In this document: one piece after another, positions 17,576-64,000 of the stretch
Layout: every line of letters begins with the position of its first letter
Position numbering within the stretch: the first letter of the stretch is position 1
NCBI GenBank assembly: GCA_963787255.1
Contig: CAWBCJ010000029.1
Coordinates: 640,001-704,000, forward strand
From: Methanobacteriota archaeon
GTDB taxonomy: Archaea > Methanobacteriota > Methanobacteria > Methanobacteriales > Methanobacteriaceae
DNA: 64,000 nt
Reading direction: 5' to 3'
The notes under the pieces: generated by a model
The model's input: the letters and a program-made list of their open reading frames with translations, nothing else
The model's database searches: none
Told to the model about the DNA's origin: nothing
Position numbers and translations under genes: made by a program

Positions 17576-17604
17576 ACTTTATCCTCCAGTTAAAAATCAA
17601 AGAA

Positions 17605-17678
<74 letters not shown>

Positions 17679-17689
17679 ATATAATACAA

Positions 17690-17761: not shown

Positions 17762-17875
17762 AGCTCTTAAGAATGAGAGTATAATTGGATATACGTATAC
17801 ATACTTAAATACTTTTCTAATTCTTCTAGTATATAACTTTTGTTATTTATTTTCCGGAGTATTTTAATAATAAAA

Positions 17876-17949
17876 TCCCGCCTGCCGGACTTGAACCAGC
17901 AACCCTCGGATCTACAGTCCGATGCTCTGCCAAATTGAGCTAAGGCGGG
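17876..17949 (-). tRNA. tRNA-Tyr(GTA)
   Basis: C1-G72 acceptor typical of archaeal Tyr; TCGGA-CT GTA GA-TCCGA. Confidence 0.95.
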
Positions 17950-17988
17950 AATATGAAATTATTTTTTGACTCCAACTATAAAAAATGG

Positions 17989-18064
<76 letters not shown>

Positions 18065-18102
18065 AAATGAAGTTCACTTATACTGTTATTAAATGGAACT
18101 AA

Positions 18103-18180
<78 letters not shown>

Positions 18181-31360: not shown

Positions 31361-31396
31361 TTCTTCATCTCCTAATAGATTAAGTAAACAGACTGT

Positions 31397-39276: not shown

Positions 39277-40350
39277 ATGAATCTTTTTGGAAAAAAGAAG
39301 GAAGAAGAAGAAATAAAGAAGGAAGGAATGGATAATACATTGGGAATTGATTTAGGTACACTTAACACTGTCGTTGCAAAACCATCAGGAGATAAATTTG
39401 ATCTTTATAAAATACCATCAGTAGTTGCCGTTAAAAAAGAAGATCCTTCATACGTGCTTGCAGTAGGTAACGATGCTAAATCTATGCTTGGAAGAACTCC
39501 GGAAGATATTGTAGCTGTAAGGCCTCTTAGAAAAGGAGTTATAGAAAGCGTGGCTCAAGCAGAAGCTCTATTAATCTACGCAATGGATAAAGGTGCAGGA
39601 GAGTCCATGGAACATATCGATAGGATTGTTATAGGTATTCCTGGAGACGCATCAGAAGTTGAAAAAAACGCTGTTGAGGAAATTGGTAGAAAAGCAGGGG
39701 CTAGTTATGTTTTAGTTATAAGTGAAGGGCTTGCAGCAGCCATAGGTGCAGGATTACCAATTGCAGAAGCATCAGGTACTATGGTTATTGACATAGGTGC
39801 AGGTTCAAGTGATATTGTTGTTATTTCACTTGGCGGAATTACAGATATCGAAACTGTAAGGCTTGGTGGAGATAACATTGATGATAATATCGTGGATAAA
39901 GTTAAAGAAATGTTCAAAGTTGAAATAGGAATTCACGAAGCTGAAAAAGCTAAAATGGAAGTAGGAATGGTGAATTCAGGTTCAGATCTTGAAATCGTAA
40001 AAACTACAGTAATTGGTAAGGATATGGAAACTAACAAGCCAAGAGAAGTGGAAATAGATTCAAAATTAGTTGCAGACGCTGCAGAACCTGTTGTTGCAAA
40101 ACTTATTGAAGCATTAGCACTAATTTTAGAAAGAATGTCTCCAGAACTTATATCTGGAGTTTACAGGGAGACAGTAGTTGTAGGTGGAACATCACAGCTT
40201 AGAGGATTAAAAGAAAGGATATTTGATGAAGTAGGCATCCCTGTTGAAATTTCAGATGATCCTATGACAGTTGTTGCTAAAGGAGCTGCCATTGTGGCTG
40301 CAGAGCCAAGGGCACTTGAACCAGAAGTACGTTTAAAAGCAATGAAATAA
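39277..40350 (+). CDS. mreB: MreB/Mbl-like actin-fold ATPase
   Basis: GIDLGT, RPLRKGVI, AAAIGAGLP, DIGAGSSD, VGGTSQL. Confidence 0.88.
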   Translation: MNLFGKKKEEEEIKKEGMDNTLGIDLGTLNTVVAKPSGDKFDLYKIPSVVAVKKEDPSYVLAVGNDAKSMLGRTPEDIVAVRPLRKGVIESVAQAEALLIYAMDKGAGESMEHIDRIVIGIPGDASEVEKNAVEEIGRKAGASYVLVISEGLAAAIGAGLPIAEASGTMVIDIGAGSSDIVVISLGGITDIETVRLGGDNIDDNIVDKVKEMFKVEIGIHEAEKAKMEVGMVNSGSDLEIVKTTVIGKDMETNKPREVEIDSKLVADAAEPVVAKLIEALALILERMSPELISGVYRETVVVGGTSQLRGLKERIFDEVGIPVEISDDPMTVVAKGAAIVAAEPRALEPEVRLKAMK

Positions 40351-41112: not shown

Positions 41113-41952
<840 letters not shown>

Positions 41953-41969
41953 TTTCAGGAAGTAATCCC

Positions 41970-42368
41970 ATGGCTATGGACGTAAACAAGTATAGAAACA
42001 AATTACGAAATAATAACCCACGTTTCAACATGGTTCCATTTATTGATATTATTTTTACGATTCTAATTTTTTTAATGGTTACAAGCAGCTTCGGCGCTGC
42101 AGATCAAACCCAATCTGTTTCTGGAAAACCACAAGTATCACAGCAAACTGGTGGACCGTCTGAATATTATTTAATCCCAGTTGCAGGTTTAAAAAAGGTA
42201 ACGGTTAATGGAATAGACATGTCAAGCTATATAAGGAATGGTGCAATTGCAGTTCATACAACTGTAATTGATGAGGGTGAAATAATAATAAGGCCTAAAA
42301 ATGGAGAAATTATTATAACTACTCCTACTAATTTTCCTCCAAATGAGGCAGTAAAGGCATCAATATGA
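41970..42368 (+). CDS. ExbD/TolR-like protein
   Basis: NMVPFIDIIFTILIFLMV with the conserved TM Asp. Confidence 0.88.
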   Translation: MAMDVNKYRNKLRNNNPRFNMVPFIDIIFTILIFLMVTSSFGAADQTQSVSGKPQVSQQTGGPSEYYLIPVAGLKKVTVNGIDMSSYIRNGAIAVHTTVIDEGEIIIRPKNGEIIITTPTNFPPNEAVKASI

Positions 42369-49252: not shown

Positions 49253-50454
49253 ATGATTCTGAATATAAGAATCGACCATAAAACAGCGGATATTTGCACA
49301 ATTGAAAAATCTACTCGTCAAATGGACGAGCTCTTTGAAAAAATAAAGAGTGAATGTATTGTAGATGAGTATATTCAGATAAAAACATGCAATCGCGCCG
49401 AACTGTATATTTTTCTAGACAATATTAACCATAATAACATTGATTTTGATAATTTTATAGTTGAAACCGATGACGATGCCTTAAAACATCTTCTTAGATT
49501 GTCATGTGGCTTAGAATCCATGATAATAGGTGAGGATCAAATATTAGGACAAATAAAAGAGGCCAGAAAAAAAGCATTTCTACAGGTTGCTGCGGCCAAA
49601 TTTTAGATACTATTTTTACTAAAGCCATCCATGTTGGCCAGTCTGTAAGAAAAAGGACAAATATTAACAAGGGATCTATTTCTATTGGTTCTGCAGCGGT
49701 TGAACTTGCAGAGTCAGTTCACGGCGACTTGAAATGTAAAAAAGTCCTTGTTATAGGTGCTGGAAAAATGGGAACTCTGGTTGCAAAGGCTCTGGCGGAA
49801 AAACACCTTAAAGCAATTGTAGTGGCAAACAGGACATATGACCGAGCTAAGTGTCTTGCAAAGGAACTTGGAGGGTCAGCAATACATTTTGATAGACTTG
49901 ATGAATCCATGAGTGATGCTGATGTTATAATAAGTGCTACAGGAGCACCTCACGCTATTTTAAATCGTGATAAGGTTAAAAATGCAGTTCCGCATGAAAA
50001 TCTCCATAAACTGGTGATGGTGGATATTGCTAATCCGCGGGACATTGACGAAGATGTTAAAGAATTAGGTGTTAAATTATTTAATATTGATGATTTAAGG
50101 GGAATAGCAGATAAAAATAAGGAAATGAGGGAGTCTGAAGCTCTTGAAGCTGAAAAAATTATTGAAGAAGAAATTTTCCTTCTTAAAAAGTCTTTAAAAC
50201 ATCTTGAAGTTGAATCTCTTATTTCAAATATAAGGGGCAAGGCAGAGAAAATAAGGATTCATGAAACAGAAAAGGCAGTTAAGATGATGGGAGATATTAA
50301 CGGTAAAGAAAAAATAATTGACGACCTCACACACGTTATGATTGATAAAATCTTCTCTGATATCATAAAGAACATTAAAACTGCAGCTGAAAATGATGAT
50401 AAAAAAATAATTGAAACTGCAGAATGTCTTTTTGCAAGAGAAAATAGTAAATGA
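49253..50454 (+). CDS. hemA: Glutamyl-tRNA reductase (apparent 1-nt deletion near 49578)
   Basis: [25 protein letters not shown], split over two frames. Confidence 0.9.
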
Positions 50455-50591
50455 AGTAATTAAATTATTTTTGTTTAGTTTTATCCTTTTTACTAAACTA
50501 TTATGTATTACTACGTTTAGAAATAGTGTTTAAAGCGGATGTACTTAAATAAATCATTTAAGGAACTATTTTTCATACAAAAGTAAAATAA

Positions 50592-51269
50592 TTAAATTAA
50601 ATTAAATAACAGTATTAAAGAGCTACTAATAAACTCAGAATTCCTTTTTTCAAGACTTCCTTTTTTAACAGGATGTGAATTAATGATAGAGTCATGTATT
50701 GCATTATAAGATGCACTTGTACCGTTATTCAAATCATTTTGAATGTCAGAATTATTTTTTGATTTTAGCCAATCATTCCAGTTGGTTTTACCATTTATAC
50801 TCGCTTTGTTCATTGCTGAATGTAAATCATCATTTGATTGAATTACTCCGGGAGTTAAAAAACTGGCTTTTGTCTCATATAATGTGTGATTGGGTCCGCT
50901 GGCACCAGCACAGTGTGGGGCAGAAAAACTATCTGTAATATAATGGGAAGCTACGCCGTAGCAGTAACTGGCATAGTAGTAATCGCCAATTTCGTAGTAA
51001 TATTGTCCTTTATTCAGCCATTCTTCAGCTTTATCATAACTATTAGGGTAACTGTGGTATTTAAAATCAAAGAATTTAAAATCAGGATCCATTGAACCTT
51101 CTTTCATAGCATCTAAACTTAAATTTTGTTGAATGTCTGAAGGTAAGGAATTATAGTTATTTTCCACTATTTCTTCATGGGTATTCCAGTTCCAAGCTGA
51201 AGCAGCAGGAATTTGAACAAAAAATGCTCCGATTAAAAAAAGACATATTATTATTACTGTTTTATTCAT
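50592..51269 (-). CDS. Secreted zinc-dependent phospholipase C / S1-P1-like protein
   Basis: Signal peptide followed by W..TH; DPD; HYITD...H; H..YE. Confidence 0.8.
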   Translation of the reverse strand: MNKTVIIICLFLIGAFFVQIPAASAWNWNTHEEIVENNYNSLPSDIQQNLSLDAMKEGSMDPDFKFFDFKYHSYPNSYDKAEEWLNKGQYYYEIGDYYYASYCYGVASHYITDSFSAPHCAGASGPNHTLYETKASFLTPGVIQSNDDLHSAMNKASINGKTNWNDWLKSKNNSDIQNDLNNGTSASYNAIHDSIINSHPVKKGSLEKRNSEFISSSLILLFNLI

Positions 51270-51364
51270 GATTTCACATTATTTAAGATTTATTTTAAAT
51301 TTATTAGTATAATGAACTTATCTTGAAAGGAAACATTTATACTTTATGTATCAAAAAGAATTTA

Positions 51365-51394
51365 TATAACTATCGTTATATAACAATTGTAATA
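51365..51394. promoter_or_regulatory. Tandem palindromic operator (TATAACnATnGTTATA) upstream of the GMC gene
   Basis: TATAACTATCGTTATA (51365-51380) overlapping TATAACAATTGTAATA (51379-51394). Confidence 0.7.
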
Positions 51395-51427
51395 AAATTT
51401 TTTTAATTAATTTATAGAGTGAAATTT

Positions 51428-52756
51428 ATGACTTTTGACGTTGCAGTAATCGGAACAGGCGCTGGAGGCGCCACAGCAGCAAGGGAATTATCAAAAAAAG
51501 GACTTAAGGTCTTAATTTTGGAAAAAGGAAAACGCCACAAAACAGGTACATCCGCAAATCACATTAAAAACATCCCTATAAAACTAAAAATGGATTTAAT
51601 AGATAAAAATGAAGAAAATCTTGATTTTATCCAGCTTCCTGCAGAATTGATGTACATAGAAGATGTTGGAGGTACAACTCCAGTATCTCTTGCCAACGCA
51701 TGTTATGCTTGTAGTACATGTTATGCAAATTCTGCAACAACACAATTCCAAATCCACGACCTTGATCTCTTTAAAGAACTAATAGAAGCAAGTGGAGATT
51801 TAAAAGTTAACCCGTTTCCAGCAGATTTAATGGGACCTGCAACACGTAAAATAGTAGAATGTGGAGAAAGCCTCGGATTTTTCATGGAGCCTATGCCCAA
51901 ATTCATTGATTTTTCTAAATGTGATAGCTGTGGGCAGTGTATTCAAGGTTGTACAAGGGATGCAAAATGGGACTCAACACACTTTGTAAATGAAGCAGTA
52001 GCAAAAGGTGCAACTTTAATTTCAGATTTTAAAGTCACAAGAATTATCTCAGAAAATGGAGATGTAAAAGGAATAGAAGGCATATTTGGAGATAAAACAA
52101 AATATTTTGAAGTTAAAAAAGTTATAATTGCTTCAGGAGCATTAAATACTCCTCAAATTTTAAAAAATTCAGGAATTACAAAAAATGTAGGTGAAGGCTT
52201 ATTCTGTGATCTTTTTATAACCATTGGAGGATATTTAAAAGATATAAATTATTATAAAGAAATTCCTATGGGCGTAAAATCAGAATTCGGACCTTATTTT
52301 TTATCACCTCACTTTTCAAATCAGCTGATTGAATTACTGGAAAATAAGGGAGTCAACGCTAATCCTGAAGATATCGTTGGAATAATGGTTAAAATAGCAG
52401 ATGAAGCTAATGGAAAGGTTAATGAAGATAAATCAATTGAAAAAACACTTACTAAAAGAGATTTAGACCTTCTAAAAGAAGGATATGAAAAGAGCGTTAA
52501 AATACTTGTTGAAATGGGTGTAGATCCATCTTCTATAGTTGCAACGCCTATAAGAGGTGCACATCCTGGTGGAACCGCAGCAATGGGTAGTGTAGTTGAT
52601 AATAACTTAGAAACTGAAATTAAAGGACTATATGTAGCTGATGCCAGTGTAATTCCCCAAGCCCCGGGAAGACCTCCAATTTTAACTATAACTGCACTGG
52701 CAAAAAGACTTGCTAAAAACATCTCTAACGGCATGAAAGTAAAAATAGAGAACTAA
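51428..52756 (+). CDS. GMC-family flavoprotein oxidoreductase with [4Fe-4S] insert
   Basis: GTGAGG, CDSCGQCIQGC, HPGGT, VADAS, PILTITALA. Confidence 0.85.
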   Translation: MTFDVAVIGTGAGGATAARELSKKGLKVLILEKGKRHKTGTSANHIKNIPIKLKMDLIDKNEENLDFIQLPAELMYIEDVGGTTPVSLANACYACSTCYANSATTQFQIHDLDLFKELIEASGDLKVNPFPADLMGPATRKIVECGESLGFFMEPMPKFIDFSKCDSCGQCIQGCTRDAKWDSTHFVNEAVAKGATLISDFKVTRIISENGDVKGIEGIFGDKTKYFEVKKVIIASGALNTPQILKNSGITKNVGEGLFCDLFITIGGYLKDINYYKEIPMGVKSEFGPYFLSPHFSNQLIELLENKGVNANPEDIVGIMVKIADEANGKVNEDKSIEKTLTKRDLDLLKEGYEKSVKILVEMGVDPSSIVATPIRGAHPGGTAAMGSVVDNNLETEIKGLYVADASVIPQAPGRPPILTITALAKRLAKNISNGMKVKIEN

Positions 52757-52770
52757 AAAAACGTTTATAT

Positions 52771-53808
52771 GTGATGAAAATGGAAAATATAACCGAAAAT
52801 AGGTATTCAAGACAGGCAATTTTACACAACATTGGTAAAGAGGGTCAGGAAATACTGGGGAAAAGTCATGTTATCATTATAGGATGTGGGGCACTGGGAA
52901 CAGTGGCTGCAAATAATCTTGCGCGTGCAGGAGTAGGTAAAATCTCCATTTTAGACAGGGATTTTGTTGAACTAAACAACCTTCAGCGCCAGATGCTCTT
53001 CGATCAAAATGACGTAGGGGAACCAAAAGCAATAGCGGCAACCAGAAAACTGCAGTTAATTAATTCAGATATAGAAATAGTTCCCTTAGTTAAGGATTTA
53101 AACCATACTAACATCGATGAAATAATTAAGGATACAGATCTTGTTCTGGACGGAACAGATAACATCCAGACAAGAATGCTCCTTAACGATGTTTGCGTAA
53201 AGGAAAAAATTCCCTGGATTTACACCGGAGCAATTGGAACATCGGGCATGACAATGAATATTCTTCCGGATGCTGCATGTATCCGCTGTCTATATCCAAG
53301 CATTCCTAAACCCGGATCACTTCCAACATGCGATACAATGGGAGTTTTAAACACTGTAACAGTCATTATGGGTTCAATGGCCAGTACAGAGGCGATAAAA
53401 ATACTTCTTGGAAAAGCAAAACCTCGAAATAAACAGGACAGCAGCTTAATAGTCTATGATGCATGGAATAACTCATTCGACGAAATACTTGTAAGAAAAA
53501 ACGAAGAATGTGCATGCTGCATAGATGGAAGTTTCGATTATTTAAATGCTGAAGATAGAGAAGTTATTAGTTCGCTTTGCGGTCGAAATGCTATCCAAAT
53601 AACTCCTGCAGATGCAAAAGAGTTAGATTTACACGAATTAGCATCTAAACTTGAACATTTAGGCAATATCAAATGTGCAGATTTTATATTACTTTTTAAG
53701 ACCCAAAATTATGAAATATCTGTATTTCGTGATGGAAGAGCAATAATTAAAGGAACTGATAGTGAAAAAGTGGCAAGATCAATTTATGCAAGATTTATCG
53801 GTACTTAA
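52771..53808 (+). CDS. ThiF/MoeB/E1-family adenylyltransferase
   Basis: RYSRQ, GCGALG, NLQRQ, CxxC pairs, PTCD. Confidence 0.92.
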   Translation: MMKMENITENRYSRQAILHNIGKEGQEILGKSHVIIIGCGALGTVAANNLARAGVGKISILDRDFVELNNLQRQMLFDQNDVGEPKAIAATRKLQLINSDIEIVPLVKDLNHTNIDEIIKDTDLVLDGTDNIQTRMLLNDVCVKEKIPWIYTGAIGTSGMTMNILPDAACIRCLYPSIPKPGSLPTCDTMGVLNTVTVIMGSMASTEAIKILLGKAKPRNKQDSSLIVYDAWNNSFDEILVRKNEECACCIDGSFDYLNAEDREVISSLCGRNAIQITPADAKELDLHELASKLEHLGNIKCADFILLFKTQNYEISVFRDGRAIIKGTDSEKVARSIYARFIGT

Positions 53809-53936
53809 TATTTCAAAATATGAGATAATGTGTTCATTTAGGAAATTGGTTTTAATATATATACTTAAAGGGTCAAGTATTATAAGATCAAATTTTCGAG
53901 GAATTATTTTAATTTAATATGCGAGGTACAAACGAG

Positions 53937-54542
53937 ATGAAAACCCTTAAAATAGGTGAAAATACCTTTGAACTTGCAGAAATCATTATTAATGACTTAA
54001 AAGCATCAGAAAATATTGGAATTCTTAAATGCATCCAGTGCGGTATGTGCACATCAGTCTGTCCCGCAGCAAGACATACAGACTATGACTCACGAGAACT
54101 GGTTAAAAGAGTTCTAGATAAAGACGAAAGTTTAATTTCAGACCCCATAATTTGGGATTGTTTTTACTGCTACACCTGCCACAGCGTATGCCCTGTAAAT
54201 AATAGCCCATGCGAAATAAACCAAATAATAAGACAGAAAGCTATTGATAATGGAAACGGAAAATCCAAAATAGCCCCTTTTTCGGCATACGGCGATAGTT
54301 TCCTTGAATTTGGACTTGGAGCAATTCCAAACGATTTCTTCGACGACTTGTTAAAAGATTATGGAAAGGAATGGCTTGAATTAAAGATTAATTTGGAGGA
54401 TATCCGGGAAGAATTAGGTCTTGGCCCGATATTACTGCCAGAAAAGGATGTAAATGATATTAACAAAATTTTGGAGAAAACAGGATTCACTAAAAGACTG
54501 GATAGAATAAGGCGGTGTAAAGATGAAGAAAATACCAGATAA
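53937..54542 (+). CDS. hdrC: Heterodisulfide reductase subunit C-like
   Basis: CIQCGMCTSVCP and CFYCYTCHSVCP. Confidence 0.85.
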   Translation: MKTLKIGENTFELAEIIINDLKASENIGILKCIQCGMCTSVCPAARHTDYDSRELVKRVLDKDESLISDPIIWDCFYCYTCHSVCPVNNSPCEINQIIRQKAIDNGNGKSKIAPFSAYGDSFLEFGLGAIPNDFFDDLLKDYGKEWLELKINLEDIREELGLGPILLPEKDVNDINKILEKTGFTKRLDRIRRCKDEENTR

Positions 54543-55470
54543 GGAAATTTTACTCTTTAAAAGCTGCCTTGTAAATGTTGAATATCCGGGAGTAGAATCA
54601 TCAACCAAATTTCTATTCGATAAACTGGGAATAGAATACATTACAAGTGAAAGACAGTCCTGCTGCACTGGTTTAGGACATTACGCGGATTTATTTGACC
54701 AATTTTCAACAACTACACTTTCAGCAAGAAACTTTGGAATTGCAAGAGAAGAAGAACACAAAAATATAGCCACACTATGTGCTACCTGTTATGCAATACT
54801 AAAAAAATCAGCCAATATTTTAAATAAAAAAGAAGATGTTAGAAAAAAGGTAAATACGATTTTCGACGATACAGAAATTCCTAATTTGAAATATAATGCA
54901 GATGATATGGATTCAAGAGATAATATTTTCCATGTAGCTGAAATTCTTTATAATAAGGCCGAAGAAATTGAAAATCTTGTAGAAATAGATTTATCAGGCT
55001 TTAAAGTGGCTGCACATCACGCCTGCCATTATTGTAAAGTTCATCATAATGATACTATTGGAAATGTGAGAAATCCAATGGTTATAGAAACCCTTGCTAA
55101 AGCATGCGGTGTGGAAACAGTGGACTGGTATGATCGCAAAACAAATACCTGTGGTAACGGCTTCAGGCAGCGTTACATGAATAAAGATTTATCATTTTCC
55201 ATAACAGCAGAAAAGCTGCTTAGTTTAAAGGAGAATGAAGTTGATATTTTACTTCACATGTGTCCAAATTGTCAGCTGCAATTTGACAGAAACCAGAAAG
55301 TCATTGGAGAATCAATGGATACTGAATTCAATATTATGTGCCTTAACATTTCTCAATTTATAGCTCTTGCTCTTGGAGCCGACCCTTACAAAGTTGTAGG
55401 GATTCAGACACACTCAGTTCCTATAGAACCTATTTTAAAGAAAATAAAGCAGATTAACCTATGTTTATGA
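54523..55470 (+). CDS. hdrB: Heterodisulfide reductase subunit B-like
   Basis: CCG-domain motifs SCCTG/CATC and HHACH/CPNC..QFD. Confidence 0.85.
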   Translation: MKKIPDKEILLFKSCLVNVEYPGVESSTKFLFDKLGIEYITSERQSCCTGLGHYADLFDQFSTTTLSARNFGIAREEEHKNIATLCATCYAILKKSANILNKKEDVRKKVNTIFDDTEIPNLKYNADDMDSRDNIFHVAEILYNKAEEIENLVEIDLSGFKVAAHHACHYCKVHHNDTIGNVRNPMVIETLAKACGVETVDWYDRKTNTCGNGFRQRYMNKDLSFSITAEKLLSLKENEVDILLHMCPNCQLQFDRNQKVIGESMDTEFNIMCLNISQFIALALGADPYKVVGIQTHSVPIEPILKKIKQINLCL

Positions 55471-55479
55471 GGTAAGACA

Positions 55480-57855
55480 TTGAATAACTATAATTTTTCA
55501 AGATATGCACCAAAAAGCAGTATAGATATTGGTGTTTTTTTATGCCGTTGTGGAGGAAATATTTCCGATACAGTTGACATTGAAAGGCTTAAGTCTTCAA
55601 TAGACGCTAAAGTAGTGAAGGATTTCGAAAATCTCTGCTCAATCAAGTGCCAGAAGAATATCAGGGATATTATACTGGAAGAAGATTTAGACCGGGCAGT
55701 AATTGCAGCATGTTCACCGATTACTCACGAAAAAACCTTTAGAAACCATGTAGCTCCTCTAAATCCATATCTTTTAGAAATGGCCAATATAAGAGAACAG
55801 TGTTCATGGGTGCATTCTGATGTGGATAAGGCAACGGAAAAGGCAATATCACTTACGGGTGCTGCCATTGAACGGGTTAAATACGCCAGACCACTGGACA
55901 CAATAGTTCGAAAAACCAAAAAAAGCGTCGCTGTAATAGGTGGTGGAATATCTGGAATAACTACCGCGCTTTCAATGGCAAAACAGGGCATTAAAGTATA
56001 CATAATTGAAGAAAAGCCTACAGTCGGTGGAAATATGATAAAAATAGGCAAAGTATTCTCTCCAGAAAAACTTGCAGAAGAATGTGCGCTGTGTCTTTTC
56101 AATCCACTGATAAATGAGGCAGTACAGCATAAAAATATTGAAATGATCACCAATGCAGAGCTTAAATCATCCGAAAGGAAAGCTGGAAACTTTAACTTGA
56201 TTGTCGAAAGAAAACCAAGTTTTGTTAAGGAAGATAGATGTACAGCATGCGGTAACTGTGCGGAAGTCTGTCCAGTGGATGTTCCAAATGAATGGAACGA
56301 AAAATTGATGCTGAGAAAGGCTATTTACAAACCGTTCCCGCAGTCAGTTCCTGACGTATACACAATTGATGAAGAACACTGTATTAAGTGTGGAAAATGC
56401 CAGAAAGTCTGTACAATGGATGCTATTAATCTTTCGATGAAAGGGGAAATTATGCCTCTTAACGTTGGTTCTGTGGTTATAGCCACTGGCCATAAAGGAT
56501 TTAACCTTACAAAACGTCCTGAATATGGATATGCAAGATATGATGATGTAATAACTCAAATGGAGCTTGCGAGGATAATGGGGGTTAATGGACCGACAAA
56601 TGGTAAATTACTCCAACCTTCAACTGGTAAAATTCCAAGAAGAGTGGTTATGGTTCAATGCGCAGGTTCCAGGGACGAAAAGCCTGAAGGAAAACGATAC
56701 TGTTCAAAAGTTTGCTGCATGGTGGCTTTAAAGCATGCAAACTTTATCAAACGTTACTATCCAGATACAGAAGTTATAATCTGTTATACGGATATGAGAA
56801 CCCCGGGAATGTATGAAAATTATTTTAGACATGCACAATCAAAGGAGATTAAACTAATAAGGGGAAGACCTGGAGAAATAGCTAAGAAAGGGGAAAATCT
56901 CGTTGTCAGAGTTGAAGATACTTTGAAAGGGGAACAATTGGAAATAGAAACTGACATGGTTGTTTTATCTGAGGCAATGGAGCCTTCAGAGGGAACATTA
57001 AAAGTAGCAGAAACATTGAATGTCGGTCTTACCGAAGATCTCTTCGTAAAAGAGAAACATCCAAAGATAAAGCCAGTTAGCACAGATATAGAGGGAATCT
57101 ATGTTTGTGGAACTGCACAGGGTCCAAAAGATATTACTGATAGCGTTTCCCAGGCAAACGCAGCGGCATCTAAGGTTTCAGAAATTATGAATGGGGGATT
57201 AGAGATAGAACCGACCATAGCAGTTATTGACCCTTCCAACTGTCAAATCTGTGGGGACTGTGTAACAGCATGTAAATATAAAGCTATTTACATGCAAGAT
57301 GAGCGTATATCAGTTGATGCTATTGCCTGTACTGGCTGTGGAATATGTATGTCCAAATGTAAGCATGAAGCAGTTGAAATTATGGGCCAAACAGATAGTC
57401 AACTGTATGCAATGATTTCTGGTATGTTGAAGGGCAAAAAAGATGGTGAAAGGAGAATACTGGCATTTGTAGATTATATAGGCTACGTAGCATCTGATAA
57501 CATAGGAATAAACAGGATATCCTATCCACAATCAGTTAGAATCATTAGAATTTCATCAATTAACCGTTTAATGCCGAAACATATTATATATGCATTTGAA
57601 AACGGCGCAGATGGAATATTTTTGGGTGAATATCCTGATGATATAATGTATCCGAGTATTCAAGAAAAAGTGCAACAATTCCGCTCTGCACTTATAAAAA
57701 ATAGTATAGATCCAGATAGATTGATGTATTACAAGGTTTACGCACCGTACTTTAGAGGATTGGCCAATAAATTCTATGAATTTGATAAACAGGTTAGTAA
57801 TGCCCTTGATAAGCTTGAAGCGGTGTTATACAAAGCTTCTTCTAAAGATTTATAA
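55480..57855 (+). CDS. hdrA: Heterodisulfide reductase subunit A fused to a degenerate MvhD-like domain
   Basis: AACSP, NIREQCSWVH, GGGISG, ferredoxin inserts, YCSKVCC, GPKDI; C-terminal YPQSVRIIR...GADG. Confidence 0.9.
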   Translation: MNNYNFSRYAPKSSIDIGVFLCRCGGNISDTVDIERLKSSIDAKVVKDFENLCSIKCQKNIRDIILEEDLDRAVIAACSPITHEKTFRNHVAPLNPYLLEMANIREQCSWVHSDVDKATEKAISLTGAAIERVKYARPLDTIVRKTKKSVAVIGGGISGITTALSMAKQGIKVYIIEEKPTVGGNMIKIGKVFSPEKLAEECALCLFNPLINEAVQHKNIEMITNAELKSSERKAGNFNLIVERKPSFVKEDRCTACGNCAEVCPVDVPNEWNEKLMLRKAIYKPFPQSVPDVYTIDEEHCIKCGKCQKVCTMDAINLSMKGEIMPLNVGSVVIATGHKGFNLTKRPEYGYARYDDVITQMELARIMGVNGPTNGKLLQPSTGKIPRRVVMVQCAGSRDEKPEGKRYCSKVCCMVALKHANFIKRYYPDTEVIICYTDMRTPGMYENYFRHAQSKEIKLIRGRPGEIAKKGENLVVRVEDTLKGEQLEIETDMVVLSEAMEPSEGTLKVAETLNVGLTEDLFVKEKHPKIKPVSTDIEGIYVCGTAQGPKDITDSVSQANAAASKVSEIMNGGLEIEPTIAVIDPSNCQICGDCVTACKYKAIYMQDERISVDAIACTGCGICMSKCKHEAVEIMGQTDSQLYAMISGMLKGKKDGERRILAFVDYIGYVASDNIGINRISYPQSVRIIRISSINRLMPKHIIYAFENGADGIFLGEYPDDIMYPSIQEKVQQFRSALIKNSIDPDRLMYYKVYAPYFRGLANKFYEFDKQVSNALDKLEAVLYKASSKDL

Positions 57856-57887
57856 GCAATCTCTCAAAAATCAAAGATTTTTGCTAG

Positions 57888-58506
57888 CTACGATTTTTCA
57901 TGGATTGGAAGTGTAAAATAAAAAGTCGAACCCTTAACCAACTCTGATTCCACCCAAACACGACCACCATGGCGATCAATAATTCTTTTTACAATTGAAA
58001 GTCCAATTCCAGTTCCTTGATATTCTTCATTTGTGTGGAGCCTTTGGAATATGGTGAAAATTTGATCTTGATATGGGGAATTTATTCCAATTCCATTATC
58101 TTCTTGATCCTCTGCTAAAGCTTGAAAGAATAAATCAATGGGTCTTCTAAAACCATGAGGTTCTGAAGGTTTAATAAGGCCTAATACACCATTTACAATT
58201 CCTATGTCATTATTTGGGGGGATGACATACACTTTATTTGGTTTAACTGGCATGATTATCTTGAATTTCAAGTACTTCCATATCAGTATATCTTGCAATT
58301 AATTCTGCCATAGTGCTTTTATGTGTGGGATCTTAGATGTTGAATCAAAACAAATCCCATACCTGTATCTACTGAGGCATATTACTAAATAATTTCTCTA
58401 AAGCTTCCAGCCCACCTGCAGATGAACCAATACCTACTATGGGAAATTTGCCTTTTTCTTTGGAATTGACTTTTGATTTATTTAGAGTTTTATTCTGATT
58501 TTCCAC
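57888..58506 (-). pseudogene. CheB-methylesterase N-terminus joined to a histidine-kinase HATPase C-terminus (deletion remnant)
   Basis: GIGSSAGG and IQH (CheB); [23 protein letters not shown] (HATPase); frameshifts in the 5' part. Confidence 0.8.
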
Positions 58507-58805
58507 ATTAATTCCCCTTTAAGCTTAATTTGAATTAATTAGCTTCATTTAAACCTTTTTAGTGAATTGGATAAATAATTGAAATTTAATAAATTATTAT
58601 ATGTTATAATTCAACTGATTAATAATAGTATTCTAAGTAAAAAATAGAGTTATAAACAAATTTTAAACTATTTAGGCTAGATATGAACATTATTTAGTAA
58701 GATTAAGGATTTCATTTAATAATGGCTCATTATGCATGAAAGTTTAATTAGGCAATGATTATTATTAACAATTTTTTTATAATTATTGAAACATATAGTA
58801 TATTC

Positions 58806-59135
58806 ATGCCTCAAAAAGATTATAAAAAAATAATGGAAGAAAGCAACAAGCAGAAAAAAATCGAAGAAGAATTAAATAAAACTCGTATTAGTATAATTAG
58901 GACCATTAAAGACAGGAAAAGAGTTGAAATGGAATATTTGGATGCAGTAAAAAAACAAATGGGATACTGGAAAAGCCAAATAGAAAATACTGATCCTGAA
59001 AAAGATAAAGAAAGATATAATGTAATTAAAAAGAATATTGAAATGGAAAAAGCACATATTAAACAAATTCAAGATGAATTAAATAGAATAAACGAAGAAC
59101 TTAAAATGGCAAATGAATATCAAAAAATTAAATAA
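58806..59135 (+). CDS. Hypothetical coiled-coil protein
   Basis: E/K-rich heptad pattern. Confidence 0.55.
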   Translation: MPQKDYKKIMEESNKQKKIEEELNKTRISIIRTIKDRKRVEMEYLDAVKKQMGYWKSQIENTDPEKDKERYNVIKKNIEMEKAHIKQIQDELNRINEELKMANEYQKIK

Positions 59136-59173
59136 ACCATCAATAACTAATTATATTAACTATATTGGATAAT

Positions 59174-60116
59174 TTATATTGGATAATAATGGGTCGGCTC
59201 AGGGTGAACTTTTTTAATAAATTGTGTATTAAAAATATTTTCTTCTTTTAAATTTCCCTGCATGTAACCCAATTCATTTAATATAGGGATAAATTTGAGT
59301 GTAGATTCAATATACTCTTTTGAAATGCTTGCACAGTATTTTGGAGACACATTATACGTTTTAAGCACAAAATCTTTACTAACTACTCCAACTTCTTTTA
59401 AAACAATCTCTGCTGCTTTTTCAGGCTGTGTTCTTATTAAATTGGAAGCATCTTCGTGGGCTTTAAGGAAATCTATTATAAATTCTGGTGATTCATTGAT
59501 TAATTCTTCTTTTACAACTATTCCATAGCTTGGATTGTATGGCCAGAGTTTATTTGGAGGAATTACAACTTTAGAATCAAATCTGTTTGAAATAACTGTT
59601 GCAAGGGAAGGTGTTCCAACACCAGCAGCAATTTTACCCTCATCTATTGCATCGGGGATAAAATCTGCCCAATGGAAAATTTTCTAATGTTTATATTAAA
59701 ATCTTTGGTAATTTCATGTATAATTACATCGTGAATGCACCCTTTAGTTGGAGTTCCAATAGTCTTACCTTCAAACTGCTTTAAAACAGCTTCTAAACTT
59801 CCCAATTCCTCAAAAGATTTATAGAATTTGGGAGCAACCATTACAGTGCCTTCTACATGCCCTCCTCCGATGCATTTAATTTTTAAGCCATTTTCAATTC
59901 CTATCATAACTGGAGGAAGACCTATATAACCCACATCAATGTTTTCAGATTTGAATGCTTCTATCATTGCAGGTCCTGTTGCAAATAAAGACCATTTTAA
60001 ATCGTAATCATTTAAATATTTGGTAAATTACTATTTTTTAAGATAAATGATGTGTGATATATTGTTGAAAGGTAACCTATACGGATTTTAATTCCTCCTT
60101 TTTCTTTACATTTCAT
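59174..60116 (-). CDS. SsuA/TauA/NMT1-like substrate-binding-fold protein lacking a signal peptide (frameshifted here)
   Basis: IRIGYLSTIYHTS, ATGPAMIEAF, IGTPTKGCIHDV, NPSYGIVV, FLKAHEDA, reconstructed over several frames. Confidence 0.7.
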
Positions 60117-60118
60117 AA

Positions 60119-60134
60119 ATTAACAATTGTTATA
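60119..60134. promoter_or_regulatory. Operator copy directly upstream of the SsuA-like gene
   Basis: ATTAACAATTGTTATA, ending just before the ATG at 60116 on the minus strand. Confidence 0.65.
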
Positions 60135-60164
60135 TTTCAATAAAATAAAAAAAAAAAGGTATTT

Positions 60165-60440
60165 CTAGCCACCAGCTATAGTCTGGAAGATTACAATTTC
60201 ATCATCATCTTTCACTTCGCTTTCAAGGCCTCCTCCAGATTGTGCATCTTCTCCATTAACGAGAATTTTCATATAATCTCTTAATTCACCATTTTTATCA
60301 AATAAAGCATCTTTAAATTCATTTCCATACTTTTCAGTTAAAATATCAATTAAATCTGCAATATTTCCATTGTGATCAATATTTACAGATCTTTCTCCTG
60401 TGATATCTCTAAAACGTGCTAAAAACTTAATTTCTACCAT
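60165..60440 (-). CDS. MoaD/ThiS/SAMP ubiquitin-like sulfur carrier
   Basis: Beta-grasp pattern (KFLARFRDITG, ILVNG, DDDEI) and C-terminal GG. Confidence 0.92.
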   Translation of the reverse strand: MVEIKFLARFRDITGERSVNIDHNGNIADLIDILTEKYGNEFKDALFDKNGELRDYMKILVNGEDAQSGGGLESEVKDDDEIVIFQTIAGG

Positions 60441-60552
60441 AATATGTCTCCTGATACGTTTAAATTTAAAAATATTTATTAATATGATTTATTTTATATT
60501 TAAATCAATATTGGTCTATTTATAATCTAACTTTTAAGGTTAACTTTTGCTC

Positions 60553-60568
60553 TATAACTATTGTTATA
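60553..60568. promoter_or_regulatory. Operator copy between divergent moaD-like and hydrolase genes
   Basis: TATAACTATTGTTATA. Confidence 0.7.
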
Positions 60569-60719
60569 ATCCAGGTTATAAATTTTACTCATGAACATAG
60601 ATTCTATTGTTAGTGCTCCTGATTTTTTTGATACTGGATAAGCAAAAATTAAGATCATTATTTTAGCATGAGTAAAGTTATTACAAACAAAATATAACTT
60701 ATTAATATAAAGAACTGTA

Positions 60720-61697
60720 ATGGATGTGAAAAATATGACCCGTAAGATGGAATTGGAAAATGAAGTGTTGATACACGAGGACAAGGTCATTCGTCGTGAA
60801 ATAAGTTTTCCCAGCCAAAATGTACAGCTTAAAGGCTGGATTTATTTACCTGCAGATAGGGCGAGAAAGAAAAGCCCAGGGATAGTAACAGCCAACGCTT
60901 TAACGGCGGTCAAAGAGATTACATTACCGGGCTATGCCGAACGCTTTGCAGCAGCGGGTTTCGTAACTCTGGTATTTGACTACAGATTTTGGGGTGAAAG
61001 CGAAGGAGAACCCCGCAACCAGATAATACCCTACGAAATGCAGCAAGACCTGAAGAATGCCATCACATGGCTCGCTGAACAGCCAGAAGTTGATGCAGAT
61101 CGCATAGGAGGATGGGGTGTCTCTTTGGGTGGTGCACACATGCTTTATCTATCTGCATTCGAACGCCGGCTCAAAGCTGTAGTGGCCACGGCCACATCGG
61201 TTAATGGTATTGATACTTCAGAAATGATGATGGGAAAAGAAGCCATGCAGCAAATGATGCTCCAGCTGGCTCAGGATCGGGTGATGAGATATAAAACCGG
61301 CGCGCCTGCCACCTATAAAACTGCCTGGGGAAAATTTGGCGAAGATGTTCTATTCCCGGTGGAAGAGGCTCTGGATTTCTACATGAATGCTAAAAACACC
61401 ATAGCCCCAAACTTTGAAAATCGCGTCACTGTTCAGTCCATGGAGAATTTGAACGAATACAACCCAGACTTTGCCATCCACATGGCATCGCCTACTGCGG
61501 TACTTATTGTGCATGCTGAGCACGATGTTATACCTGTAGAGTTGGTACGTGATGTGTATGAGCGTGCCGAGGAGCCCAAGAAACTTGTGGTGAAAGACTG
61601 TAAACACACGGACCTTTATGATAAGGAGCCATGGATTACAGAATCATCAGATGAAGCTATTGGATGGTTTAGAAAATATTTAGTGAGTGTACCATGA
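60720..61697 (+). CDS. Alpha/beta hydrolase
   Basis: FDYRFWGESEG, nucleophile GVSLGG, HD, KH catalytic region. Confidence 0.85.
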   Translation: MDVKNMTRKMELENEVLIHEDKVIRREISFPSQNVQLKGWIYLPADRARKKSPGIVTANALTAVKEITLPGYAERFAAAGFVTLVFDYRFWGESEGEPRNQIIPYEMQQDLKNAITWLAEQPEVDADRIGGWGVSLGGAHMLYLSAFERRLKAVVATATSVNGIDTSEMMMGKEAMQQMMLQLAQDRVMRYKTGAPATYKTAWGKFGEDVLFPVEEALDFYMNAKNTIAPNFENRVTVQSMENLNEYNPDFAIHMASPTAVLIVHAEHDVIPVELVRDVYERAEEPKKLVVKDCKHTDLYDKEPWITESSDEAIGWFRKYLVSVP

Positions 61698-61859
61698 ACT
61701 GGCCTTTTTCACTGGTTTTTGGAGCATTTAAATAGTTTATGTATTGGTTGACTAAATATAATCTTTAAATCCTCAAATTAATTAATAATTTATGGGGTGG
61801 TTTAAATTATTTTAATTGACTGAATCTTTAAATAATTTATTTTTACAAAACTGTTATAT

Positions 61860-61875
61860 ATTCACGATTGTTATA
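61860..61875. promoter_or_regulatory. Degenerate operator copy upstream of the PNPOx-like gene
   Basis: ATTCACGATTGTTATA (right half perfect). Confidence 0.45.
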
Positions 61876-61895
61876 AATATTGGTAGGTGATTTAA

Positions 61896-62294
61896 ATGGT
61901 AATGACAGAAGAAATGATGGATGCAGTTGAAAAGGATAATGTAGTATTTTTTGCAACTGCAACTAAAGAAGGAGTGCCTAATGTTGTCCCAATTGGATTT
62001 GCAAGGCCAATTGACAATAAAACAATCATGATTGTGGACAATTACTTGAATAAGACTCGTAAAAATCTTGAAGATAACCCAAAAGCAAGTTTAGTACCAA
62101 GAGATGCTTCAAAGTGCCCTTATCAATTCAAAGGAACAGTTGAAATCTTAACTTCTGGAAAAATATTTGATGATGCAGTAGATTGGGCAACAAGTGTAAT
62201 GAGCAAACTCGCGCCTAAAGCAGCAGTTATACTAAACGTGGAAGAGATTTATACAGTGCAACCAGGTCCTGATGCAGGTTCAAAAGTGGATTAA
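61896..62294 (+). CDS. Pyridoxamine 5'-phosphate oxidase-like split-barrel flavin/F420-binding protein
   Basis: ATATKEGVPNVVP, KTRKNLEDNP, YQFKG, PGPDAG. Confidence 0.85.
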   Translation: MVMTEEMMDAVEKDNVVFFATATKEGVPNVVPIGFARPIDNKTIMIVDNYLNKTRKNLEDNPKASLVPRDASKCPYQFKGTVEILTSGKIFDDAVDWATSVMSKLAPKAAVILNVEEIYTVQPGPDAGSKVD

Positions 62295-62376
62295 TTTTTA
62301 AAATTATTTTTATTTTTCTTAAATCTAAAATAAGATGTATGGTTTAAAATAAAATTTTAATTAAGAAATTTTTAAG

Positions 62377-62733
62377 GTGATTTTAATATCAGCAAGAGTA
62401 GCTATTGCAAGTAGCGATGGAAAGTTTGTAAATCAGCATTTTGGTAGAGCGCAGCAGTTTTTAATTGTAGATATTAATGATGACGGCAGTTATGAATTTT
62501 TAGAAATTAGAGAGAATACTCCTTCATGTCATGTTGAAGGACATGATTCTTCAATTGAAGATACATTAGATTTAATTTCTGACTGTGATGGAGTATTAGT
62601 AAGTCAGGTTGGTCCTGGAGCAGCCGATAAGTTAATAGAAAGGGGAATTCAGCCCATAATAATACCAATGTTAATAGATGAGGCTATAAAGAAGGTTTAT
62701 TCGTTAATGCAGGAAAAAGATGATGAAAATTAA
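62377..62733 (+). CDS. NifB/NifX-family (FeMo-co-binding domain) protein
   Basis: VAIASSDG..VNQHFGRA..F; SDC...SQVGPGA. Confidence 0.88.
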   Translation: MILISARVAIASSDGKFVNQHFGRAQQFLIVDINDDGSYEFLEIRENTPSCHVEGHDSSIEDTLDLISDCDGVLVSQVGPGAADKLIERGIQPIIIPMLIDEAIKKVYSLMQEKDDEN

Positions 62734-62760
62734 TGGAACTAAAATTTTTTAATCACATAA

Positions 62761-62883
62761 TATAACGATCGTTAATTTTATATATGATGTTCTTTACTAA
62801 ATGAATATAACTATAGTTATATTATGGCATCCTCAGCCAATAAAATGTATAATCTGTAACAATGTTATATAACTATAGTTATA
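62761..62883. promoter_or_regulatory. Cluster of 3-4 operator copies upstream of cysK
   Basis: TATAACGATCGTTAAT 62761-62776; TATAACTATAGTTATA 62806-62821 and 62868-62883; TGTAACAATGTTATA 62855-62869. Confidence 0.8.
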
Positions 62884-62937
62884 TATTACATAAAAAACAA
62901 TAGAAAAAATAGATATAGTATTACAATGGTGAGAAAT

Positions 62938-63926
62938 ATGGTAAAAATACCAGAATTAAAAAGAGGAATAGCAAATAATGTAACAGAACTGATAGGAAAT
63001 ACTCCTCTTGTAAGGTTAAACAGAATTACCGAAGGGACAGACGCAGAGGTTGTAGCAAAGCTTGAATCATTCAACCCTTTAAGCAGCGTAAAAGACAGAA
63101 TAGGAGTTGCAATGATAGAATACGGGGAAGAACAGGGACTTATTAATAAAGATTCAGTTCTTAGTAGAACCTACAAGTGGAAATACCGGTATTGCACTTG
63201 CATTTGTTGCAGCAGCTAAAGGATACAAACTTATTCTTACAATGCCCGATACAATGTCCATAGAAAGAAGAAAGTTGCTTGCACTTCTCGGTGCCGAAAT
63301 TGTATTAACTCCTGGTGCAAATGGAATGAAAGGGGCTGTAGCCAAAGGCAGAAGAACTATCCGAAAGTATACCTAATGCAGTAATGCCTCAACAGTTTAA
63401 AAACCCTGCAAACCCAAAAATCCACAGGGAAACAACTGCACATGAAATATTAAGAGATACAGATGGTAAAGTAGATATATTAGTTGCAGGTGTAGGTACT
63501 GGTGGAACAATAACAGGTATTGCAGAAGTTTTAAAAGAAAAAAACCCTGATTTTAAGGCAGTAGCAGTCGAACCAATATCCTCTCCAGTATTATCTGGAG
63601 GAAAACCCGGACCGCATAAAATTCAGGGAATAGGGGCAGGATTTGTTCCTGATATTCTTAGAACGGATTTAATAGATGAAATCATTCAAGTAAAGGACGA
63701 AGACGCTGCAAGTACATTATTAAGACTTGCAAGAGAAGAAGGAATACTTGCAGGTATATCATCAGGGGCTGCAACATGGGCTGCCATTGAACTTGCAAAA
63801 AGAGAAGAAAATGAAGGTAAAAGGATAGTAGTAATTCTACCAGATACAGGAGAAAGATACTTAAGTATGGACTGGGTATTTGAAGAAGTTTTCCATACCT
63901 ACAATCAAAAGGATTTCTCCAACTAA
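62938..63926 (+). CDS. cysK: Cysteine synthase A (two apparent 1-nt insertions near 63163 and 63346)
   Basis: [43 protein letters not shown]. Confidence 0.9.
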
Positions 63927-64000
63927 GGTCATAGAATATCCATTTATTTCTATTTTTATTTTTCAACGAAAATTCCTGAAATGGAGGCGTGCAAATGTTT

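Follow-up and report, generated by a model that had tools for sequence, protein, structure and literature searches.

Protein-thiocarboxylate routes lead to cysteine in the case of CysO-CysM-MoeZ-Mec and to homocysteine in the case of HcyS-HcyF-MetY. Canonical HdrB, a subunit of heterodisulfide reductase (Hdr), carries two CCG motifs of the form C...CC...CxxC which bind noncubane 4Fe-4S clusters, and in the iron-sulfur (Fe-S) dehydrogenases of the GMC family electrons pass from a 3Fe-4S cluster to a partner subunit. Operon types related to the CysO and HcyS routes are given in a survey of ThiS/MoaD neighbourhoods, in the main text of which the words ‘heterodisulfide’ and ‘sulfonate’ are absent (PMC1779556). 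A fusion of HdrA with an MvhD domain has been characterised in M. acetivorans as an F420H2- and ferredoxin-dependent heterodisulfide reductase, and Yan et al. reported that of the MvhD-fused HdrA2 homologs which they retrieved none belonged to an obligate CO2 reducer (PMC5296606). Here we analyze a module at positions 51361–63926 of a 64,000-nucleotide stretch (the window) from contig CAWBCJ010000029.1 of a Methanobacteriota archaeon of the family Methanobacteriaceae. The module contains genes for a GMC-family flavoprotein, a ThiF-type E1 adenylyltransferase, paralogs of HdrC, HdrB and HdrA, a ubiquitin-like carrier (Ubl), an SsuA/TauA-fold protein, a PNPOx-like and a NifX-like protein and CysK (Table 1).

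The original prediction, made from the letters of the window alone, regarded these genes as a co-regulated sulfur-handling module. We find this view well supported, since the genes are co-conserved and their operator is common to classical sulfur genes in related genomes, and we consider it very probable that they belong to a co-regulated sulfur regulon which is lineage-wide in Methanobacteriaceae. The best overall explanation, which we hold with moderate confidence, is that the module is a segment of this regulon with a proposed activation of sulfur by E1, Ubl and Hdr. Every protein family in the module is already known. The operator and the candidate regulator look undescribed, and so does the occurrence of E1 and Ubl together with Hdr and an Fe-S GMC protein. 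A search of the full-text literature, without supplements and subscription journals, returned no description of the cluster, the palindrome or the regulator, nor did it bring up a sulfur regulator of Methanobacteriales.

Conservation of the module in related genomes

One genome per species was scanned for the GMC protein, which gave 92 relatives, from which 80 loci were retained. They stem from Methanobacterium-like and Methanobrevibacter assemblies, together with one metagenome-assembled genome (MAG) of Halobacteria and one short contig labelled Bipolaricaulota. Synteny was counted in the Methanobacterium-like loci with at least 7 kb of downstream sequence (n = 34). In 30 of these ThiF, HdrC, HdrB and HdrA follow GMC on the same strand, and this order is kept although the proteins are only 55–85% identical. 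The stop codon of ThiF overlaps the start codon of HdrC (ATGA) in 8 of 41 loci, which is a mark of translational coupling of the two genes in some species. Co-conservation of GMC-ThiF-HdrCBA, on which the original prediction depends, is thus borne out in Methanobacterium-like loci. The other members were counted within 10 kb (n = 32 loci): an SsuA-like gene was found in 17, Ubl in 14, PNPOx in 22, NifX in 9 and cysK in 8.

An operator shared with classical sulfur genes

The palindrome TATAAC-N4-GTTATA occurs eight times in the window when at most one mismatch is allowed, compared to 0.34 sites expected, and none of 100 shuffles reached eight. Six of the eight sites fall within 51365–62883, i.e. 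in the module. At two mismatches three more sites are found in the same range (60119, 62761 and 62216), the last of which lies inside the PNPOx-like coding region and was taken as chance. The degenerate site at 61860 in front of the PNPOx-like gene was detected by a position weight matrix (PWM) built from related loci. According to the original prediction the upstream regions of the module genes share one palindrome. This holds for GMC, the SsuA-like gene, Ubl, cysK and, weakly, PNPOx; no site was found in the window upstream of ThiF, HdrC or NifX. The module would comprise four putative transcription units, each of them apparently preceded by one to three copies of the extended palindrome: GMC, ThiF and HdrC, HdrB and HdrA(MvhD) as the first, Ubl followed by the SsuA-like gene as the second, PNPOx followed by NifX as the third and cysK as the fourth. 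Before GMC the left half-site overlaps the TTTATATA TATA-like box, and the second copy lies where the start of transcription is expected. Copies located on or just downstream of the TATA region would suit the layout of an archaeal repressor operator.

Two operator-like sites elsewhere in the window were set aside, one at 17832 (1 mismatch) between tRNA-Asp and tRNA-Tyr as probably chance and one at 32846 upstream of korD as a probable chance or weak site. Five tRNA genes (Lys, Asp, Tyr, Pro, Thr) are clustered at 17604–18176 on the minus strand.

In 1.28 Mb of related loci we found 217 operator matches, compared to 6–13 in five Markov simulations. The central four positions are constrained as well: 92% of the sites have A at position 8 and T at position 9, giving the consensus aTATAAC-wATw-GTTATAt. 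For counts by position a site had to lie within 250 nt upstream of the gene. An operator then precedes cysK in 10 of 10 loci at a distance of 21–45 nt, the PNPOx-like gene in 22 of 27 loci (12 of them at 3–22 nt), GMC in 42 of 70, Ubl in 7 of 16 and the SsuA-like gene in 9 of 34. The corresponding counts are 0/43 for ThiF, 0/42 for HdrB, 1/40 for HdrA and 2/13 for NifX, and 0/8 for each of the control genes atwA, methanogenesis marker 9, cysG-N and hemA.

The wider regulon was compiled from all open reading frames (ORFs) in related loci that start within 300 nt of an operator site, which were clustered and then annotated. Operator-preceded genes encode MetY (homocysteine synthase, 19 loci), a cysteine desulfurase-like aminotransferase (iscS-like, 8 loci), CysS (4 loci), MetX (3 loci) and a NifE/D-like protein (3 loci), and in one or two loci each IscU, ThiI, Thi4, FdhD, MoaE and a rhodanese-TusA-DsrE fusion; moaE is operator-preceded only in two Methanobrevibacter loci. 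The list further includes an EgtC-like amidotransferase (13 loci), methanogenesis marker 8 (5 loci) and, divergent from GMC in 19 Methanobrevibacter loci, a LarE-like sulfur transferase. These genes have sulfur in common, be it in cysteine, methionine, Fe-S clusters, thiolated tRNA or thio-cofactors, and no other observation speaks more strongly for the co-regulated sulfur module of the original prediction.

In one Methanobrevibacter locus (L042) two SsuA-family sulfonate-binding proteins reach 181 and 170 bits (cut-off 163.5) beside the GMC homolog, an arrangement that hints at organosulfur scavenging. The neighbours of this GMC homolog are a LarE-like sulfur transferase, a short ThiF, FdhD, an EgtC-like amidotransferase and the two SsuA-family proteins, without Hdr, and the neighbourhood carries operator sites (coordinates 8617–9630, 12180–13118 and 15696–16667).

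A cysteine-rich candidate regulator

An operator-preceded ORF in M. oryzae (L005) contains an HTH_3 domain. Homologs of this protein, which we call HTH-Cys, are encoded downstream of cysK in six loci (L005, L011, L012, L016, L032 and L040), in L016, where the intervening ORF was annotated, directly after cysE. Another homolog adjoins the GMC homolog in the Halobacteria MAG (L078). In this locus the adjacency of GMC and regulator is kept, but there is no operator site and the other neighbours are uninformative. The protein collection contains 598 members of this family under no other name than ‘transcriptional regulator’, and the family is covered by no NCBIfam model. In an alignment of 13 sequences Cys5, Cys89, Cys92 and Cys102 occur without exception, and for Cys115 and Cys118 conservation is 90% or higher. 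A tblastn search did not find the gene in the window, whose last position is 74 nt past the end of cysK. Judging from its adjacency to cysK in relatives, where it has 125–131 aa, the HTH-Cys protein is likely to bind the palindrome and, in the genome of the window, to be encoded just beyond the window. It is a fair guess, and no more than that, that the cysteines form a metal or Fe-S site sensing the sulfur status of the cell.

The Hdr paralog

Grouping of HdrB with the canonical copies would have counted against the original prediction, and HdrB of the window does not group with them. Its score of 203 bits is below the cut-off of the canonical model TIGR03288 (345 bits), and with five canonical HdrB sequences of solved structure it reaches only 142–170 bits, the highest value being that to 8rvu, which is of the Methanobacteriales type. 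A library of 1.84 billion representatives contains only 31 HdrB representatives at E ≤ 1e-30. In a maximum likelihood tree of 38 rows the window protein and seven cluster orthologs fall into a 13-row clade (support 100/99), and a branch with 100/100 support parts the side of the window from the side with three representatives that pass TIGR03288; the root of this tree is arbitrary, and HdrB1 and HdrB2 of M. acetivorans and named Methanosarcina sequences lie outside its rows. The first CCG motif is complete, with C15, C47, C48, C86 and C89 present in 39 of 39 orthologs. In the second motif, C168xxC171 ... T-C210-G ... C247xxC250, CCG is replaced by TCG and an extra cysteine, C171, stands three residues after the first. 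This variant is kept in 38–39 of 39 orthologs. By its sequence HdrB is a paralog and not the canonical enzyme.

The core of HdrA is close to canonical HdrA (569 bits to 9sfi_A). Its C-terminus consists of an MvhD/FlpD domain (PF02662, residues 660–773, 79.5 bits), and the protein stays below the cut-off of the HdrA2 model NF040770 (778 compared to 1100 bits). In the loci examined here MvhD-fused HdrA does occur in Methanobacteriaceae. A predicted complex of GMC with residues 572–791 of HdrA (ferredoxin plus MvhD) had a score of 0.00 in a run without controls, which speaks neither for nor against binding.

The GMC, E1, carrier and SsuA-like proteins

The GMC protein passes both Pfam models of its family, GMC_oxred_N with 76.2 bits (cut-off 23) and GMC_oxred_C with 49.6 bits (cut-off 24.6). 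It contains two cysteine motifs, C92xxC95xxC98 and C165xxC168xxC171xxxC175. All seven cysteines are invariant in 12 of 12 sequences; in a set of 55 sequences this holds for six of them, C95 being conserved to at least 90%. The best non-self relatives, where named, belong to Methanobacterium, with up to 86% identity, and we assign the window to a Methanobacterium. In the structural model (predicted local distance difference test (pLDDT) 80.6, predicted template-modelling score (pTM) 0.84) the best folds are the flavin adenine dinucleotide (FAD) subunits of the Fe-S GMC dehydrogenases 8jej (template-modelling (TM) score 0.75), 8grj and 6a2u. The conserved C-terminal histidine is H379.

The E1 reaches 149 bits with E. 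coli ThiF (1zfn) and has a C-terminal extension of about 90 aa. All 44 orthologs share cysteines 170, 173, 187, 247, 249, 250 and 270. Cys187 is presumably equivalent to Cys184 of ThiF. The Ubl ends in GG in all 17 sequences (the window protein and 16 orthologs).

The prediction of an SsuA/TauA fold without signal peptide was confirmed on intact orthologs, since the gene of the window is disrupted. The model of the ortholog in L011 (pLDDT 85.4) has TM scores of 0.75–0.76 to the TauA/SsuA folds 6ssy, 2x26 and 3ksx, which assigns it to the TauA/SsuA/Thi5 fold at 13–17% identity to the structural matches listed. In the intact orthologs the sequence begins with the first beta strand, without a signal peptide. 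It was the fold search alone that placed the protein: a sequence search of the PDB with an intact ortholog gave nothing at E up to 0.01, and the SsuA model TIGR01728 gave 50 and 43 bits (cut-off 163.5). The module has no ABC permease or ATPase genes. In view of its many invariant histidines and cysteines, a function of the protein as enzyme or carrier is no less likely than one in binding alone.

Gene layout and disrupted genes

All genes named in the original prediction exist, with the qualification that the SsuA-like gene, which is found on the minus strand, and cysK are each split over three frames. Its list was incomplete: a hydrolase, a kinase remnant and a small ORF had been overlooked (Table 1). 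The module is flanked by methanogen housekeeping genes (atwA, methanogenesis marker 9, cofE/cofD, RNA polymerase and EF-2). A scan of 50400–64000 with Rfam gathering thresholds had no match, so no riboswitch or known RNA is present in the module.

Table 1. Features of the module, its operator sites and the candidate regulator genes. Positions refer to the window unless a locus is named.
Feature	Position	Strand	Size, evidence or context
GMC-family FAD protein, likely Fe-S insert	51428-52756	+	442 aa; Pfam, alignments, model
ThiF/MoeB-type E1 adenylyltransferase	52771-53808	+	345 aa; ThiF 262 bits
HdrC paralog	53919-54542	+	NCBIfam hdrC_Methbact 310.6 bits, cut-off 270
HdrB paralog, variant second CCG motif	54523-55470	+	NCBIfam, structure alignment, tree
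HdrA fused to MvhD/FlpD domain	55480-57855	+	791 aa; Pfam, NCBIfam
CheB/histidine-kinase remnant	57888-58518	-	pieces of 136 and 49 aa
Lysine/glutamate-rich ORF without family	58755-59135	+	126 aa, 22.8% GC
SsuA/TauA-fold (NMT1_2) gene, predicted cytoplasmic, three frames	59174-60119	-	ortholog alignment, fold search
ThiS/MoaD/SAMP1-like Ubl ending in GG	60165-60440	-	91 aa; family models
Alpha/beta-hydrolase	60720-61697	+	Peptidase_S15/UilS-like, 127 bits, below cut-off
PNPOx-like split-barrel flavoprotein	61896-62294	+	132 aa; family models
NifX/NifB-C-terminal-like (Nitro_FeMo-Co) protein	62377-62733	+	118 aa; family models
cysK (O-acetylserine sulfhydrylase type), three frames	62926-63926	+	family models, ortholog alignment
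Two overlapping operators (TATAACTATCGTTATA, TATAACAATTGTAATA) at 51365 and 51379	51365-51394		47 and 33 nt before GMC start codon
Operator, 2 mismatches	60119-60134		PWM score 21.8; abuts SsuA-like ATG on upstream side, in Ubl-SsuA gap
Two operators (60553, 60565)	60553-60580		divergent Ubl/hydrolase gap, upstream of Ubl; orthologous gap in relatives faces PNPOx gene
Degenerate operator (ATTCACGATTGTTATA)	61860-61875		PWM score 14.5; 20 nt before PNPOx-like start
Three operators at 62761 (2 mismatches), 62806 and 62868	62761-62883		upstream of cysK
HTH-Cys candidate regulator	L005 1544-1936		113-131 aa (all four)
HTH-Cys candidate regulator	L016 10890-11267		
HTH-Cys candidate regulator	L040 17284-17658		
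HTH-Cys candidate regulator	L078 11289-11630		

The hydrolase is not found at the corresponding positions in relatives, where there is only a divergent promoter gap, and its GC content is 46% compared to 35% for the window. For these reasons it looks like an insertion, horizontally acquired and now located behind the operators on the Ubl side. Matches to kinase fragments downstream of HdrA are also present in L006, L018, L036 and L069, and the small ORF at 58755–59135 has counterparts of 58–66% identity between HdrA and the SsuA-like gene in L002 and L008. Elsewhere the window encodes an Imm5-like immunity protein (805–1269), an MreB-like actin (39277–40350) and an ExbB/ExbD-like pair (41113–42368).

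Relative to its orthologs, whose intact ORFs comprise 299–315 aa (n = 11), the SsuA-like gene contains two insertions of 2 nt. In cysK (intact orthologous ORFs 328–346 aa) there are two insertions of 1 nt, near 63160 and 63349. Programmed frameshifting or recoding was dropped as a cause of the split genes because the breaks are such simple insertions of 1–2 nt. Counting these two, five genes of the window are disrupted: hemA (49253–50454) has a deletion of 1 nt in an A-run at 49566, korA (31360–32531) is frameshifted near 31540, and the gene of an LpxG-like metallophosphoesterase (26038–26844) has two in-frame stops. That hemA and korA are also broken favours assembly error, whereas real decay is favoured by the pair of nonsense codons and by the concentration of four indels in genes that are neighbours, two in each; between an indel-prone assembly and a decaying genome we cannot tell. 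The SsuA-like gene is also frame-broken, truncated or interrupted by a stop in three further assemblies (L001, L020 and L065), which may represent recurrent loss or MAG errors.

Proposed mechanism and alternative explanations

In the mechanism that we favour for the module, the E1 would adenylate the C-terminal glycine of Ubl, and loading with sulfur would give the Ubl thiocarboxylate by way of an acyl-disulfide or acyl-persulfide on the invariant Cys187 of the E1. The Hdr paralog could provide the electrons that resolve this bond, or else reduce an incoming sulfur source. The Fe-S GMC dehydrogenase may act as module for electron entry or exit, coupling the system to an organic or other redox partner. 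The resulting thiocarboxylate would represent an ATP-activated and protected form of sulfide for the synthesis of cysteine, methionine and cofactors when free sulfide is low. The original prediction had assigned the Hdr paralog to the release or reduction of protein-bound sulfur instead of methanogenesis. The non-canonical HdrB, the synteny with E1 and the ATGA overlaps favour an enzyme distinct from that of methanogenesis; as far as one can judge from sequence, chances that it serves sulfur mobilisation rather than core methanogenesis appear evenly balanced. Its narrower role as a specific acyl-disulfide reductase would be a speculative assignment. Equally tentative is the full scheme of a ‘reductive sulfur activation’ by E1, Ubl and Hdr, in which the noncubane Fe-S chemistry of Hdr, fed by GMC, would act on a protein acyl-disulfide or persulfide under a cysteine-rich XRE-type master regulator.

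Several observations weigh against the favoured mechanism. HdrA (1424.5 bits, cut-off 1300, NF041891), HdrB (530.9 bits, cut-off 450, NF041780) and HdrC (310.6 bits, cut-off 270, NF041890) all pass NCBIfam models named ‘ferredoxin:CoB-CoM heterodisulfide reductase’, although such a name is assigned by annotation and does not stand for a tested function, and two of the three models are specific for Methanobacteria. Hdr follows GMC in 0 of 15 Methanobrevibacter loci and is thus not obligatory for the GMC/E1 part, and only in 2 of 44 loci is HdrC preceded by an operator of its own; given these two counts, it is through operon structure only that HdrCBA is linked to the regulon. The gap between ThiF and HdrC measures 13–544 nt in 31 of 41 loci and extends to 1.6 kb in L027 and 5.3 kb in L040, and M. 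oryzae (L005) has GMC-ThiF-SsuA-Ubl with only an HdrC match. The E1 lacks a rhodanese domain, ThiF being the only domain found, and no match to a JAMM (JAB/MPN) protease was obtained among the 18 window ORFs scanned. Ubl scores above the thresholds of MoaD_arch (TIGR01687, 69.3 bits, cut-off 49.5) and SAMP1 (NF041918, 64 bits, cut-off 60) and could for this reason simply be a molybdopterin carrier, though no MoaE is encoded in the window module. CysK is of the cysK and not of the cysM type: its three fragments have 65, 111 and 270 bits with TIGR01139, compared to 56, 72 and 130 bits with cysM. In L016 cysK is followed by cysE, in L040 by a like-sized, unscanned ORF. Finally, two members of the module, the SsuA-like gene and cysK, are disrupted in the window.

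The main alternative is that these genes are neighbours without a shared pathway. HdrCBA(MvhD) would then be an alternative CoM-S-S-CoB reductase like HdrA2B2C2, E1 and Ubl would act as MoeB and MoaD in molybdopterin synthesis or tRNA thiolation, and the regulon would contain only ordinary sulfur-consuming genes. All three Hdr subunits meet the cut-offs of heterodisulfide reductase models and an HdrA-MvhD fusion has been characterised as a heterodisulfide reductase in M. acetivorans (PMC5296606); on the other hand HdrA misses the cut-off of HdrA2, and HdrB fails the canonical model and retains its variant motif in nearly all orthologs. Similarly, a molybdopterin role of Ubl would be in line with its MoaD_arch and SAMP1 matches and with the operators in front of moaE and fdhD in Methanobrevibacter. 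The low operator count of HdrC and the absence of Hdr after GMC in Methanobrevibacter also fit this alternative, which would leave the order GMC-ThiF-HdrCBA among proteins of such divergence and the overlap of ThiF with HdrC unaccounted for. We regard this alternative as possible, though rather unlikely.

The two remaining alternatives are lesser ones. In a salvage of hydroxyl compounds to thiols or of sulfonates, GMC would oxidise a hydroxy compound (e.g. isethionate to sulfoacetaldehyde), the SsuA-fold protein would bind a sulfonate, the Ubl thiocarboxylate would give the sulfur and Hdr would return two electrons for a reductive thiolation, for example to coenzyme M. Aldehyde-to-thiol steps are part of cofactor synthesis in methanogens. 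The GMC fold with its conserved H379 and the fold of the SsuA-like protein would suit such a pathway, and in Methanobrevibacter it is SsuA-family proteins passing the model that stand beside GMC; the protein of the window itself fails this model and has very low identity to its structural matches, and no com genes were seen in the loci. We consider this salvage improbable. Least probable is a supply of sulfur for metallocluster assembly, in which a HesA-like E1 would work with the NifX-like carrier and with NifE/D-like proteins, while Hdr and GMC would assist in the redox steps. For this one can cite the NifX-like gene of the module, the NifE/NifD-like gene behind operators in 3 loci and hesA (ThiF family) in nif clusters of Paenibacillus (PMC6361004), but no more than 9 of 32 loci have NifX within 10 kb, it is operator-preceded in 2 of 13, and there is no nifH or nifB nearby.

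Significance

Little is understood so far of the way in which methanogens acquire sulfur, carry it and ration its use, and the locus offers a concrete operator together with a candidate regulator. The list of operator-preceded genes unites sulfur genes of cysteine, methionine, Fe-S cluster, tRNA and cofactor metabolism with five or six proteins of unassigned role. Synteny and overlapping stop and start codons are genetic evidence for an Hdr paralog working with E1. If this is true, Hdr chemistry would reach beyond energy conservation into sulfur assimilation, and this would explain the presence of an MvhD-fused Hdr in hydrogenotrophic methanogens, where the earlier survey did not find it (PMC5296606).

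Comparison with known systems

The module resembles the CysO-CysM-MoeZ-Mec system of Mycobacterium and the HcyS-HcyF-MetY system of Wolinella in combining an E1 and a GG-ending ThiS/MoaD-like carrier with a CysK-fold or MetY enzyme. It differs from them in its E1 without rhodanese domain, in that no JAMM protease was seen and in the cysK type of its CysK, accompanied by cysE in relatives; in addition it contains an Hdr complex, an Fe-S GMC flavoprotein and an SsuA-fold protein. With ThiF-ThiS of E. coli thiamin synthesis, which operates via an acyl-disulfide, it shares a ThiF-family E1 with a conserved cysteine, here at position 187, but not the context of thiG, thiH or thiC.

Fructose dehydrogenase of Gluconobacter (8jej/7w2j) and the alpha subunit of the FAD-dependent glucose dehydrogenase (FAD-GDH) of Burkholderia (6a2u/8grj) are the best structural matches of the GMC protein, with TM scores of 0.68–0.75. 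Identity is only 16–18%, and the window protein comprises 442 aa compared to 530–541 residues in the matched chains. Whereas these enzymes have a single cysteine cluster for 3Fe-4S, the window protein has seven cysteines in two ferredoxin-like motifs, and no cytochrome or small partner subunit as in their complexes was found next to it in the window.

Like HdrA2B2C2 of Methanosarcina acetivorans the Hdr paralog is of the soluble HdrABC type, has an MvhD-fused HdrA and is distant from canonical Hdr. Unlike HdrA2, the HdrA of the window fails the HdrA2 cut-off, passes a Methanobacteria-specific model and sits behind an E1 in a sulfur regulon. The paralog shares with the canonical MvhAGD-HdrABC complex of hydrogenotrophic methanogens (PDB 5odc, 8rvu, 9sfi) the HdrA core and an HdrB fold with two CCG domains, but its HdrB is low-scoring with a variant second motif, MvhD is fused, and the window contains no neighbouring hydrogenase or formate dehydrogenase (Fdh). 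The sHdr-LbpA system of bacteria is alike in that an Hdr-like complex takes part in the metabolism of protein-bound sulfur and not in methanogenesis. The window has no lipoate-binding protein, DsrE3 or TusA, and its HdrA is of the methanogen type with MvhD. In contrast to sHdr-LbpA, the module of the window is likely to run in the reductive and assimilatory direction.

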